10,175 nt of DNA. Source: Candidatus Heimdallarchaeota archaeon (GTDB lineage Archaea > Asgardarchaeota > Heimdallarchaeia > JABLTI01). Location: positions 1-10,175 of the forward strand of contig JAHLVW010000021.1 of assembly GCA_019058275.1 (NCBI GenBank), read 5' to 3'. Positions within the stretch are counted from its first letter, which is position 1. Every line of letters begins with the position of its first letter. Made by a program: the position numbers and the translations under genes. Of this stretch, positions 118 to 4,105 are shown piece by piece. The notes beneath the pieces were generated by a model that searched no databases, was not told the DNA's origin, and worked only from the letters and a program-made list of their open reading frames with translations.

Positions 118-1425
118 ATGATAAAACGAGTCTTAGTAGTAAAAAACAAACTTCCATTGGTTAATAGAAGCTATAAACCTGGTATAACCCAAGATCAAGG
201 TACTTCATTAGGTGAATATCAAGCGATTGTTGAAACCATATCTGGAAAAATGCTACCGGTGCAGAAAAAAGAAGAGATAATTGGTAACAATAAACTAACA
301 TATGAATTGGATGATTCTGTACTATTTATAATTAGTTCAGATCCAAATGAAATTGGTATTTTAGAGATCTTACTGCCTGAACTAAAGAATTTATTCTTTG
401 CTATTTTTCCAAAGGATTTTGTTAGTGGATGGTCTGGAGACGATTTATCGGTTTTTAAGGGATTTGAATCAAAATGTGACCAATTACGCAGTGCATTTGA
501 AAATCGGATAATGACCAAATCAGGCAGTCGAAGAGTTATTGATACACTTAGTGTAATGGAATTACCTCAAAGATTACAGAAAACAGCATTAACCATTCTA
601 GATGCTAAAATAGCAGCTTTTGAGGATGTTATCAGATTAACAGCTGTTACTCCACAAGAAGCTGTTGCGAATATACAAGAGATTCTGAATGCAGGTTTTC
701 TATACACTACAAAAATGGGCAATAAAGTGTTTTATTCTGTTAAATCCTTTGACGAATCAACTGTTGTAGAAGCAGCTCCAAGTGCACCTGCACAAGTTGT
801 TCCACCAAGTAAACCAGTACCAACAGCATCAGTTGCAGAAAGACCACTTGGTATCGATGTTAAGAAACGAGATATTGATAAAGGTAATATGCCATTTTTA
901 ATGAAGCAATTTAAGAAGGATTTAGACAAAGCTTTCAACGCAATCATTAATCGCAGAATTATCTTAGTTTTACTAGATCCTAAAACTGATAAAAATCAGG
1001 TATTAATTAACATGATTTTTGATACGTTTCAATGCTTTGCTCCTGATCGAGAATTGCGCATTGTTAGTTTTACAAAGGATTTCATTCATCCACGAGATGC
1101 AGACATCATTCGTGTTGAACGTGACTTGTTGCAATTCTATTCTAATGAAATTGTGCTTGATGTTGATAAAAAGAAAATTCTAAATGGTGATAATTCAGTT
1201 TATTTAGCAGACATAATTAAAGAAATGAGCAAGATGAAACATTCTAAATGTGTTTCATTACTAATCAACCGTGTTGCTTTAATTGAGAGATTAGCTCAAG
1301 ATTGGGCAAAAATCAAGAAACTTAACTTACCTTCTGAAGATTTCATTACTAATGTCAGAGGAAAACACAACCCAGCAATCATTCAAGTTATGGATGATGT
1401 TGCAGTAAATGTATTCATCAAATAA
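118..1425 (+). CDS. Longin + winged-helix + folliculin/DENN-like domain protein (putative small-GTPase regulator)
   Basis: 435 aa. Residues ~1-128 show a longin-like pattern (IKRVLVVK...KLTYELDDSVLFIISSD...ELKNLFFAIF...WSGDDLSVFKGFESKCD). Residues ~141-208 form a wHTH (LPQRLQKTALTIL...ILNAGFLYTTKMGNKVFYSV). A Pro/Ala linker spans ~215-243. Residues ~257-435 are DENN-like (AFNAIINRRIILVL...IFDTFQCFAP...LRIVSF...IVLDVDKKKI). The ORF itself is secure; the domain calls are inference. Confidence 0.7.
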   Translation: MIKRVLVVKNKLPLVNRSYKPGITQDQGTSLGEYQAIVETISGKMLPVQKKEEIIGNNKLTYELDDSVLFIISSDPNEIGILEILLPELKNLFFAIFPKDFVSGWSGDDLSVFKGFESKCDQLRSAFENRIMTKSGSRRVIDTLSVMELPQRLQKTALTILDAKIAAFEDVIRLTAVTPQEAVANIQEILNAGFLYTTKMGNKVFYSVKSFDESTVVEAAPSAPAQVVPPSKPVPTASVAERPLGIDVKKRDIDKGNMPFLMKQFKKDLDKAFNAIINRRIILVLLDPKTDKNQVLINMIFDTFQCFAPDRELRIVSFTKDFIHPRDADIIRVERDLLQFYSNEIVLDVDKKKILNGDNSVYLADIIKEMSKMKHSKCVSLLINRVALIERLAQDWAKIKKLNLPSEDFITNVRGKHNPAIIQVMDDVAVNVFIK

Positions 1426-1580: not shown

Positions 1581-1586
1581 GAGGTG
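1581..1586 (+). promoter_or_regulatory. Shine-Dalgarno site GAGGTG
   Basis: Ends 9 nt before ATG 1596 and matches the archaeal SD core GGAGGTGA. Confidence 0.7.
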
Positions 1587-1595
1587 TAAGAAAAT

Positions 1596-2342
1596 ATGAC
1601 TGATATTTCAGAAGTCTTATCAGCTATCAAGAGAGGAGAATTGATTTTAGAGGAAGCACTCAATGAGTTAAATACTGTTTTTTCTACAGTGAATAAAGAT
1701 ATAGAAGATATGAAGCAACCTATTCAAGAATTAATAGAATTCGAAAAAAGACAAAATAATGAAATCTCAAATTATGAATCAAGCAATTTAGCATTAACTC
1801 AAGAGATTAATTCATTTAAGGAAGAAAAAGCAACGAACGAAAGAACTTTACAAGATACTCAAAATAACCTTGCAGAAACAACAGAGAAGAGAGCAAAATT
1901 AGAAACCAAAAAGAGAGATGCATTAACAGAGCTATCTAATAATGAGAAGAAATTAGACACAGCAAAAGCAGAACTTACCATGGAAAAAGAACTTGAACAG
2001 AAAATTATTGCTGAGAAAAGTCAAATTATTGAATCAACCGAACAGAAAGTCATTGATATCGAAAAACAGGCTGAAACAGAAAAAAATCTGTTGAAAAAAG
2101 CAGAAGGCGAGAGAATGGCCTTAGAATATTTAATAAAAAGAGGTCATATCGAATTCAATGAAATTAAAATAATTAGTTCATTGGAAGGAAGAAAAAATAC
2201 CGATATGACAACTATTTCTAAAGTAACTGGTTTGTCGGAGTCATTAATCGCAAAAACACTTGAAGGATTAATGAAAAGAGGATTATTATCTTATGATGAT
2301 TCTACTGGAGCTATAGCAATTACAGGAAATCTGAAGCTATAA
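1596..2342 (+). CDS. Long coiled-coil protein with C-terminal winged helix (paralog A)
   Basis: 248 aa. About 175 aa of E/K/L/Q-rich heptad helix, followed by a wHTH pattern (EIKIISSL...DMTTISKVTGLSESLIAKTLEGLMKRGLLSYD). Good SD. Confidence 0.8.
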   Translation: MTDISEVLSAIKRGELILEEALNELNTVFSTVNKDIEDMKQPIQELIEFEKRQNNEISNYESSNLALTQEINSFKEEKATNERTLQDTQNNLAETTEKRAKLETKKRDALTELSNNEKKLDTAKAELTMEKELEQKIIAEKSQIIESTEQKVIDIEKQAETEKNLLKKAEGERMALEYLIKRGHIEFNEIKIISSLEGRKNTDMTTISKVTGLSESLIAKTLEGLMKRGLLSYDDSTGAIAITGNLKL

Positions 2343-2355
2343 TGGAGGGCAGGAA

Positions 2356-3105
2356 ATGACTGACTTTGTAAGCTTAAAAAGAAATTTAGCAACCGAAAAA
2401 GAACGACTTGAGAAATTAGGACAAAATACTAATCAAAAATTAGCTGAAGTTCTAAAGGAAATAGAAAATGCATTGATTTATCTCGATAAAACTGAAACTA
2501 GTTTCAAAGAAATGGAGAATAATCTCAACAATCGAAAAAAAGATGAAATCGATTTCCAAAATCAGAAGAAAACTTTACTGAGCGAAATTGAATCCTTAAG
2601 AGAACATATTGAACGCATTAATATCTCAATCAAAGATGAAGATGAAAGAATAGCAAAACTAGAAGCTGAAATATCACAATTAAATAACGATTTAGCACTT
2701 AAGCAAAATGATCTTTCTAAAACAGAGCGAACAATTGGTGACATGAAATCAAGTAATAAAGAGAAAAATCAAGAGAAAGAGGATATTAAGTCAAATATGG
2801 AATTTAGACTTTCAAAAGCTCAACAAATTTTACAAGAACTAGAAATTGAAAAAGAAAAAGACATGAAGGTTAGCCCAATATTAGATTTCTTGCTAAAAGA
2901 GGTACGTATTGATATTCCAGAAGTAGAAATTCTATCAGTGCTTGCTTACAGAAATCAAGCTATGGGTATCGAGGAGCTGAAACAAGCAGCTTCTAAAACA
3001 CCACCAGTTATTATCTTAAAAGTAATACGAAATCTTGACAGTAAAGGCATAATCAAGTACGATGAAAGATTAGATACAATAGAAATAATAGCTAATCTAG
3101 TTTAG
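2356..3105 (+). CDS. Long coiled-coil protein with C-terminal winged helix (paralog B)
   Basis: 249 aa with the same architecture (EVEILSVL...MGIEELKQAA...IILKVIRNLDSKGIIKYD). SD GGAGGG at 2344-2349. The 13-nt gap from paralog A implies co-transcription. Confidence 0.8.
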   Translation: MTDFVSLKRNLATEKERLEKLGQNTNQKLAEVLKEIENALIYLDKTETSFKEMENNLNNRKKDEIDFQNQKKTLLSEIESLREHIERINISIKDEDERIAKLEAEISQLNNDLALKQNDLSKTERTIGDMKSSNKEKNQEKEDIKSNMEFRLSKAQQILQELEIEKEKDMKVSPILDFLLKEVRIDIPEVEILSVLAYRNQAMGIEELKQAASKTPPVIILKVIRNLDSKGIIKYDERLDTIEIIANLV

Positions 3106-3246: not shown

Positions 3247-3786
3247 TTGAGCTTCTTAGCTAGACTCTTTAGGCAAAAAAAACAATTCAAAATAGCAGTT
3301 GTTGGTTTGGATTCAGCTGGTAAAACCACAATGCTAAACTTTTTGCGTTTTGAAAAAAGCATTGAGACATTACCAACGATCGGTGTGAATGTAGAAGTTC
3401 TCCAACGACAAAATGTTAATCTTAGTGTTTTTGATTTGGGTGGACAAATGCACTTTAGGACTCTTTGGGGAACACTTATGAAAGGCTCAAGTGCGATAAT
3501 TTTTGTTATTGATTCATCTGATCACGAACGTATTGAAGAAGCTAAAAATGAATTGTGGAAAGTATTACTTGATCCTTTATATCCAGATGCACCTTTATTG
3601 ATTGTAGCGAATAAACAGGATAAAACATATGCCATGACTATAGATGAAATTATTAGAGCATGTAATTTAGATGATCCTGAGAAAATGCAAAATCGTAGTT
3701 GGCACATACAACCCACAGTTGCAACAACTGGAGTTGGTGTGGAAGAAGCTATCAAATGGATAGTAATTGAATTAGATAAATTATGA
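3247..3786 (+). CDS. Arf-family (Arf/Arl-like) small GTPase
   Basis: 179 aa, TTG start. G1 GLDSAGKTT, G2 PTIG, G3 FDLGGQ, switch II R-x-L-W, G4 NKQD, G5 TVATTG, plus the Arf-type C-terminus RSWHIQPTVATTGVGVEEAIKWI. N-terminal amphipathic helix MSFLARLFRQKK. Confidence 0.95.
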   Translation: MSFLARLFRQKKQFKIAVVGLDSAGKTTMLNFLRFEKSIETLPTIGVNVEVLQRQNVNLSVFDLGGQMHFRTLWGTLMKGSSAIIFVIDSSDHERIEEAKNELWKVLLDPLYPDAPLLIVANKQDKTYAMTIDEIIRACNLDDPEKMQNRSWHIQPTVATTGVGVEEAIKWIVIELDKL

Positions 3787-3805: not shown

Positions 3806-4105
3806 ATGGTAGAAATCTCAAGACCAATGATTTTACGAATTGGAACTCCAAAAATCGAGAAAGATCTCAAAAGAGTTCATCAGCTGTTGATTAGTGCAGG
3901 ATATCAAAAAGTTGAGGAAGGAAAGTATGCTCACACTTCTGAACCCACTCTTTCTGCACTTTTGGGATTAGACGTTATAAAGGACAATGAAGGGAATCCT
4001 TTAGAAGAAGTAATTGAGCTAATTCTTTCTGATGCTGATAACTATGTTAATCAAACAATATACAACGCTTTAGCAACAGTATTTCCATTGGAATTAACGA
4101 AGTAG
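3806..4105 (+). CDS. Small alpha/beta protein of unknown function, probably co-transcribed with the Arf gene
   Basis: 99 aa, ATG start, SD GGGTGA at 3793-3798, 19 nt after the Arf stop. Composition is typical of a globular protein. Confidence 0.75.
   Translation: MVEISRPMILRIGTPKIEKDLKRVHQLLISAGYQKVEEGKYAHTSEPTLSALLGLDVIKDNEGNPLEEVIELILSDADNYVNQTIYNALATVFPLELTK

Follow-up and report, generated by a model that had tools for sequence, protein, structure and literature searches.

The 10,175-nt stretch of a Candidatus Heimdallarchaeota archaeon analysed here (positions 1 to 10,175 of contig JAHLVW010000021.1, assembly GCA_019058275.1; hereafter the window) contains two adjacent genes, A and B, whose products of 248 and 249 amino acids are paralogs composed of a long coiled-coil rod and a C-terminal winged-helix head. 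The genes form an obligate pair of fixed order, and the length of the rods as well as the positions of two breaks in their heptad pattern (stutters) are conserved across lineages. We consider it probable that this pair is ancient and Asgard-specific, and that the two chains form a parallel, in-register, acidic heterodimeric rod of ~26 nm carrying two heads, which would serve as a self-contained spacer or adaptor of fixed length. The coordinates of all features are given in Table 1.

Paralogy, pairing and conserved geometry

Both open reading frames (ORFs) start with MTD, and their similarity is far beyond chance. A single-pair BLASTP comparison of A and B gave an E-value of 0.004. With hhalign, the comparison of family alignments gave E 2e-9 (probability 96.3) and that of phylum-wide alignments E 4.6e-27 (probability 99.7) over 253 columns, running gapless through the coil. 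The first-pass annotation of the window, which had described tandem paralogs of matched length with alignable C-termini, is borne out by these values; it had also stated that both proteins end with NL, which is correct for the presence of the motif and incorrect for its position, the termini reading ...GNLKL and ...ANLV. In a maximum-likelihood tree built from 26 proteins of each type, the A-like and B-like clades are split by one branch (support 100/99) and the same lineage groupings are found on both sides. The single split and the mirrored subtrees point to one old duplication, followed by co-divergence of the two genes.

Close homologs of A and B were found under adjacent locus tags in at least 11 metagenome-assembled genomes (MAGs), and a phylum-wide genome scan returned weaker B-like matches in seven families besides the window's own. 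In the following, f1 denotes the window's family, which comprises two genera, and f2, f5, f9 and f26 denote other Asgard families. In each of 20 loci fetched from seven other families, an A-like gene (248–254 amino acids) is followed directly by a B-like gene (242–254 amino acids); in one of these loci (L046) the A-like gene is represented by its last 74 residues only. According to the ORF coordinates, the two reading frames share 1 or 4 nt in many of these lineages. Four further loci with both genes, from f5 and f2, show the order A-like then B-like, again adjacent, as do all 25 of the fetched loci outside f1 in which both genes are present.

A profile of the head module detected the family in 158 of 268 genomes of at least 85% completeness, nearly always with exactly two (or four) matches. 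It is present in all families of the window's class but one, in 88 of the 106 genomes of the largest family and in small, Odin-sized genomes, and was not found by this profile in one family of 58 genomes nor in several smaller ones. The A-B pair occurs in at least 15 families and in most Heimdall-, Loki- and Odin-type genomes. An exhaustive search with a hidden Markov model (HMM) of the 105-residue head module returned 339 clusters among 1.84 billion representatives, almost all of them of 240–254 amino acids, and a word-indexed search returned at least 488 clusters. Most of the longer matches of the exhaustive search that were checked are proteins with multiple winged helix-turn-helix (wHTH) domains (MarR-repeat), four are without any Pfam match, and they gave no functional clue. 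The source names are nearly all Asgard (Loki-, Prometh-, Hermod-, Hod-, Odin- and Heimdall-archaeota, Kariarchaeaceae). The source annotations read either hypothetical or ‘chromosome segregation ATPase’, the latter being wrong. No paper on this A-B family was found in the literature.

Public MAGs labelled Zixibacteria, Bathyarchaeia and Nanopelagicaceae (P0050/P0115, P0044/P0109, P0224) also carry the pair; these labels are most likely binning or labelling errors. At one locus of another Asgard family (L032:6563-9688, minus strand; G094:C27) the whole pair is present as a tandem duplicate, A-B-A-B. The A gene of the second copy groups in the tree with the A-like genes of that family and its B gene falls into the same broader clade, a placement which indicates that the pair was duplicated as a unit. 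The window's genome encodes in addition a third, shorter relative of 159 amino acids with a coil of ~85 residues and a winged helix (G000:C61:21830-22141, minus strand, the same as L049:1489-1968, minus strand). This protein matches the head-module profile at E 3.5e-10, is solitary, has a neighbour that is RpoK/Rpb6-like by eye, and probably represents a separate family.

The geometry of both proteins is tightly kept. The 72 close homologs of A are nearly all exactly 248 residues long and the 63 close homologs of B nearly all exactly 249, and no insertions or deletions (indels) were seen in 32 (A) and 30 (B) close homologs down to 50% identity. Phylum-wide, the rod measures 188 ± 3 residues. 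In both paralogs the conserved Glu of head helix 1 mostly lies 187–194 residues from the N-terminus (extremes 181 and 196), most of the spread being due to start-codon choice. Rod length is held to a few residues while identity falls below 20%. Such geometry is a constraint typical of rulers, tethers and lattice-forming rods.

The heptad registers of A and of B were each derived from column hydrophobicity in the alignments, with positions counted from the conserved head Glu. Two stutters, each a shift of the heptad phase by +3, were found at matching distances from the head in A and B in eight of nine lineages. The same heptad letter is assigned to A and B at 80–95% of positions in six lineages, and at 91% and 74% in two others after an offset of one residue in the linker; the f9 pair, represented by a single sequence, was poorly resolved. 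In the window's family, A and B show the same three heptad segments, with breaks at 21/22 and ~138–145.

In Loki-type A-like proteins (L034, L036, L037, L039, L043, L045), the sole coil indels with respect to the other A-like proteins are a 7-residue deletion and a 3+4-residue insertion (A4 alignment, columns ~80–86 and ~165–175). These total seven residues, so that heptad count and rod length are preserved. Four longer members of the family (P0305, P0326, P0353 and P0363; 283–322 amino acids), one of them labelled Promethearchaeota, have the head module 35–75 residues further from the N-terminus, so that their rods are longer by several heptads.

Rod, heads and evidence for a heterodimer

Models calculated with AlphaFold2 (AF2) from family alignments showed for each protein one long helix followed by a winged helix, with a mean pLDDT of 89.5 for A and 82.8 for B, the B head reaching just 53–71. 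The twin winged-helix tips proposed in the first-pass annotation were thus recovered. The long coil was likewise confirmed and is slightly longer than the 170–175 residues and ~25 nm given there: it comprises ~178–180 residues, which at a rise of 0.148 nm each amounts to ~26 nm. In sequence searches against Pfam, NCBIfam and the PDB, A and B had just sub-threshold coiled-coil and wHTH matches, and neither Pfam nor NCBIfam returned an ATPase or transmembrane family match, in keeping with the first-pass annotation. Searches for folds in the ESM Atlas, with VIA-align in its wide mode and by Atlas features yielded nothing beyond generic winged helices, long helices and Asgard clusters without a name. 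PADLOC returned for A and B only coil noise (JetC/LmuB) and a weak wHTH match to CasR; PHROGs returned none for A and B, and one weak coil match to a tail protein for a Loki-type A-like protein. The full-length family profile, when compared with the PDB, matched in its rod part only generic two-stranded coils (myosin, tropomyosin); swamped by these rods, it was uninformative on homology and was abandoned for this purpose.

Conservation is highest at the coil-head junction and in the heads, followed by the N-terminal 20 residues, and a smaller peak common to both proteins lies at residues 60–90. Along the rod, conservation in A correlates with that in B (r ~0.55).

Charge pairs between g and e' positions were counted for parallel, in-register pairing. 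For the 14 pairs of the window's family, the net number of attractive pairs was +6.2 for A-B, −2.4 for A-A and −0.1 for B-B. Over representatives of nine lineages, the net A-B values were +6, 8, 14, 0, 9, 11, 4, 6 and 2. Shifting A against B by multiples of seven gave a mean of ~0 (Wilcoxon p 0.002 versus in-register), and the homodimer means were −0.9 for A-A (p 0.012 versus A-B) and +1.8 for B-B (p 0.020). Conserved charged residues occur at six core positions in A and ten in B that never coincide, and would hence face themselves only in homodimers. As the stutters lie asymmetrically along the rod, full-length antiparallel pairing would set them opposite regular heptads. The first-pass annotation had proposed a parallel in-register heterodimer on the grounds of conserved matched length, and this proposal is supported by the obligate pairing, by the coincident stutters and by the g-e' pairs of A-B as compared with A-A, B-B and shifted arrangements.

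Prediction of the A-B complex gave a score of 0.54, the best of three controls scoring 0.00; runs agreed in at least 97% of contacts and the partner pLDDT was at least 85. Of 80 solved complexes, 58 reached the mark applied to such predictions, as did 2 of 110 mismatched pairs; at scores of 0.60 or below, no more than 7 of those 80 solved complexes reached it, and so did both passing mismatches. The prediction lends weak support to a heterodimer.

Function of the pair and alternative readings

In the model we favour, the A and B chains would associate as a parallel, in-register dimer, a single acidic coiled coil of ~26 nm, with two roughly neutral winged-helix heads juxtaposed at one end and the conserved N-terminal tip at the other. 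The heads and the N-terminal tip would each bind a partner of their own, that of the heads being conserved and more probably a protein than DNA, with the pair acting as a self-contained structural module, that is, as a spacer or adaptor of fixed length. The position of the pair between a DENN-type gene (ORF1) and an Arf gene in this genome would be a family-specific arrangement and not the key to its function. Autonomy of the pair is suggested by neighbours that differ between lineages and by a T-rich tract and a Shine-Dalgarno sequence of its own, which set it apart from ORF1. With heads that are about neutral on acidic proteins, DNA clamping by the heads is improbable. A two-headed 26-nm spacer made of two small soluble proteins would be a concrete and cheap target in the search for new elements of Asgard cell organisation.

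Several points weigh against this model. The heterodimer is drawn from gene order, sequence statistics and one weakly supported prediction, and the spacer or adaptor function from shape and conservation. The nine lineages are kin, and the Wilcoxon p-values therefore overstate their independence. In two lineages the homodimer scores equal or exceed those of A-B (A-A +12 in f5, B-B +8 in f26), and the complementarity of polar and hydrophobic core positions between A and B was not significant (overlap 7, expected 5.9). Coincident stutters would also be expected from shared ancestry alone. The head is MarR/Lrs14-like in sequence and fold, and by eye two basic positions of the third helix recur in B-like proteins, so that binding of nucleic acid is conceivable. 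Finally, the gene order in f1 is invariant and there is no clear terminator between B and Arf, so that a local functional tie is possible.

The likeness of the heads to MarR is the basis for regarding the pair as a DNA or chromatin factor, in which the heads, juxtaposed by the coil as the subunits of a MarR dimer are, would bind DNA while the rod connects stretches of DNA with each other or the chromosome with some other structure. We consider this unlikely. In its favour, the head-module profile matched MarR (1.8e-5), Lrs14-like (5.4e-5), cullin-2 WHB (1.3e-4) and also Lrp/AsnC HTH chains in the PDB, and MarR Pfam matches were obtained for 15 of the 26 B-like proteins (best 1.4e-7). A itself reached 16.4 bits with the Pfam model of TrmB (cut-off 25.6), and the window's A and B stayed below the cut-offs of MarR-type models. 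The end of the coil together with the head superposes on MarR/SarA including the N-terminal dimerisation helix, at Z 9.7–9.8 but with an rmsd of 6.7–8.6, and the recurrent basic residues of the third helix would also fit. However, the heads are neutral to slightly acidic (mean net charge +0.15 in A, −0.7 in B) and the whole proteins strongly acidic (−3 to −20), most lineages have acidic or polar wing tips and the D-x-R of the MarR wing is kept only in B of f1, and no gene of DNA metabolism is a consistent neighbour. Moreover, protein-binding heads such as cullin WHB have the winged-helix fold just as well: MarR, SarA, CAP, Zalpha and cullin WHB (Z 8.5–9.8) as well as IclR matched the head at tied scores (Foldseek, VIA-align), and Foldseek gave no match with E ≤ 0.001 against the PDB. 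The view in the first-pass annotation that the A head looks more DNA-binding-like than the B head was not upheld, since both are about neutral and B-like proteins, if anything, match MarR more often.

A-B dimers could also assemble further, in the manner of intermediate filaments, with rod length and stutters being required for axial packing. The length kept to a few residues at less than 20% identity, the two conserved stutters, the coil indels of one lineage adding up to seven residues and the resemblance of the rod profile to myosin, tropomyosin, crescentin and lamin rods would all be in keeping with a filament or lattice former. We nevertheless regard it as quite unlikely, in that the coil matches are generic and a fixed length is equally expected of a ruler or tether. 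Assignment to a crescentin- or intermediate-filament-like family was rejected, the Pfam model Rod_CreS giving 13.3 bits at a cut-off of 100.

We similarly doubt strongly that A and B form two separate parallel homodimers that merely share an operon. The homodimer scores in f5 and f26, the stutters explicable by common ancestry and the weak complex prediction would be accounted for in this way. However, the conserved charged core residues, six in A and ten in B, would then face themselves, and A-A pairing is net repulsive in most lineages. The strict 1:1 pairing, the frequent overlap of start and stop codons, the duplication as a unit and the near-equal rod lengths would be hard to explain without co-assembly.

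The gene arrangement of the window invites a further reading, in which the neighbouring Arf recruits the rod, the DENN-type protein regulates, and the pair tethers membranes or cargo in f1 like a small golgin. In both genera of f1 the order ORF1(DENN-type)-A-B-Arf-99aa is invariant, being seen in 10 of 10 contigs that reach past B, and continues with Kae1; the 141-nt gap between B and Arf is without a clear T-run; and the Arf of the locus is the best Arf-family match of its genome. We hold such an effector role to be highly improbable all the same. The whole f1 region is syntenic, including Kae1, Sua5 and RadA, so that the order may be mere inheritance and is little informative. While the pair is found in at least 15 families, adjacency to Arf is found in one: no Arf, DENN or 99-aa gene adjoins the pair in the 20 loci from seven other families, and the conserved unit is therefore the A-B pair alone. 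With 37 small-GTPase-like genes in the window's genome, chance adjacency is not rare, and a T-rich tract separates ORF1 from A. Golgin- or GRIP-type effectors of Arf/Arl were rejected as relatives, as Pfam gave no GRIP or other Arf-binding domain match and Arf adjacency is confined to f1.

The first-pass annotation had tied the pair to the Arf clade and had named in advance, as the finding that would speak against it, orthologs unlinked to the GTPase; this is the situation outside f1, and the tie is not supported. A Ras-family small GTPase (Pfam Ras 1.6e-40) was observed directly behind the B-like gene at one f5 locus (L035:5997-6563, minus strand; G055:C7). It is the only other GTPase neighbour, and a second GTPase link was rejected, as this position is not occupied by the gene in three other f5 genomes, including two of the same genus. 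Neighbours elsewhere vary by lineage (DNA methylase, radical SAM, HSP20, RIO-like kinase, solute-binding protein, glutamate dehydrogenase), and no common one was found across the lineages of the fetched loci. As a full-length ORF1 ortholog occurs only in f1, a DENN-Arf-99aa module lacking the pair cannot be traced in sister families. In the Asgard Arf papers found by the literature search, gene neighbourhoods and coiled coils are not discussed. We give very little credence to the related idea that the rod is an Asgard-specific molecular ruler or tether and has been incorporated, in a single Heimdall family, into an Arf cassette made up of a DENN-type regulator, the rod itself, Arf and a 99-aa partner; if true, the rod would be a prokaryotic counterpart, independently arisen, of coiled-coil Arf/Arl effectors such as golgins. 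Unless binding is shown directly, the pair should not be taken to support an Arf ‘proto-trafficking’ operon.

Known systems and layout of the locus

No named family matches the A-B pair; Hop2-Mnd1, Ska1, SMC, ESCRT-III and GRIP were checked. The eukaryotic recombinase accessory complex Hop2-Mnd1 also consists of paralogous chains of ~200–250 amino acids with a winged helix and a long coil, which form a parallel heterodimer with the winged helices together at one end, the arrangement proposed for A and B. However, its winged helix is N-terminal, whereas that of A and B follows the coil (residues 187–244 in the AF2 models); its coil is bent and made of three zippers, in contrast to the one ~178-residue helix of A and B; and its heads bind DNA, whereas those of A and B are about neutral. 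TBPIP (PF07106) and Mnd1 (PF03962) gave no match on A or B at E 0.1, and a genome scan at E 1 gave none at C7:1596-3105. The likeness is in architecture only.

The kinetochore rods Spc24-Spc25 and Ndc80-Nuf2 likewise consist of paralogous chains; these form a parallel heterodimeric coil with paired heads at one end and act as fixed-length spacers, as is proposed for A and B. Their heads are RWD or CH domains and not winged helices, and they are not known to be related to A and B in sequence. Another kinetochore protein, Ska1 (~255 amino acids), resembles A and B in size, in its N-terminal coil part and in its C-terminal head of winged-helix type. It differs in belonging to a three-chain bundle and in having a head that binds microtubules. 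The Ska subunits are paralogs (10.1101/514885). With SKA1 (PF07160), a genome scan at E 1 returned one unrelated match (E 0.48) elsewhere and none at the A-B locus.

Regulators of the MarR/Lrs14/TrmB type share with A and B the head fold, a detectable sequence likeness and the placement of the helix in front of the head, which lies like the dimerisation helix of MarR. They are, however, homodimeric DNA-binding proteins of ~140–150 amino acids with basic heads, whereas in A and B a 180-residue rod replaces the dimerisation domain, the chains are two and different, and the heads are not basic. A compact DNA-binding homodimer of ~150 residues was rejected in view of the 248/249-residue chains, the 178-residue rod, the two chains and the head charge of about zero. 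The crenarchaeal chromatin protein Sso10a also joins a winged helix to a dimerising coil, and the A head matches its NCBIfam model weakly (E 0.0038, 17 bits versus a cut-off of 60). It differs in its size (~95 amino acids), its N-terminal head and its short antiparallel homodimeric coil, which puts the heads at opposite ends.

Two further candidates were rejected. SMC/Rad50, suggested by labels such as ‘chromosome segregation ATPase’ and ‘SbcCD ATPase subunit’, matches only by its coil and below threshold (27 bits versus 567), and A and B are without an ATPase family match and have a single unbroken helix in the AF2 models, not an antiparallel coil with hinge or hook. For ESCRT-III/CdvB, Snf7 is absent from the matches of A and B at E up to 0.1, and the AF2 monomer shows one straight helix and no hairpin, folding back still being possible. 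Snf7 is also not among the 25 most frequent of the 141 families matched by the 26 B-like proteins, four of which show coil noise from PspA_IM30.

Table 1. Features of the A-B locus and its immediate neighbours, in window coordinates
Feature	Position (nt)	Strand	Description
Gene A	1596-2342	+	248 aa, ATG start, ORF; upstream member of the pair, A-like clade
Gene B	2356-3105	+	249 aa, ATG start, ORF; downstream member of the pair, B-like clade
A rod	1605-2138	+	residues 4-181; AF2, heptad analysis, myosin/tropomyosin-type profile matches
A rod stutters	~1656-1661, ~2007-2012	+	residues 21/22 and 138/139; three heptad segments
A head	2154-2321	+	residues 187-242, H-S-H-H-S-S; conserved junction ALEYLIK..HIEFNE in front
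B rod	2359-2898	+	residues 2-181; three heptad segments as in A; AF2, heptad analysis
B rod stutters	~2416-2421, ~2767-2790	+	residue 21/22 and between 138 and 145; heptad analysis
B head	2914-3087	+	residues 187-244; near-invariant junction SPILDFLLKEVRIDIPEVEIL in front; PP opens third helix; AF2, alignment
Shine-Dalgarno-like GAGGTG of gene A	1581-1586	+	9 nt 5' of ATG; from sequence
A-B spacer, 13 nt	2343-2355	+	contains GGAGGG Shine-Dalgarno at 2344-2349; from sequence
ORF1	118-1425	+	435 aa; DENN-type label (longin/WH/DENN-type), without Pfam match
Arf-family GTPase	3247-3786	+	Pfam Arf 2.7e-50
99-aa gene	3806-4105	+	ORF; behind Arf gene

The GC content of the window is low (~31%), and the Shine-Dalgarno motifs of genes A and B are both strong. 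By synteny, ORF1 adjoins the A-B pair on its 5' side, and the Arf and 99-aa genes on its 3' side, only within f1. The remaining genes of the window include Kae1, Sua5 and, on the minus strand, RadA. Directly 3' of the ORF1 stop lies a T-rich tract (1448-1479; T9, C6, T5, A, T4), followed by an AT-rich stretch and then the GAGGTG of gene A. This tract resembles an archaeal terminator, in which case ORF1 and A-B would be transcribed separately. A further contig of this assembly carries a stretch (G000:C67:43525-43791, plus strand) with 97% identity to residues 1–89 of ORF1, in an open frame of only 103 amino acids; a fragmentary duplicate or mixing of strains may account for it (contamination estimate of the assembly 6.8%).

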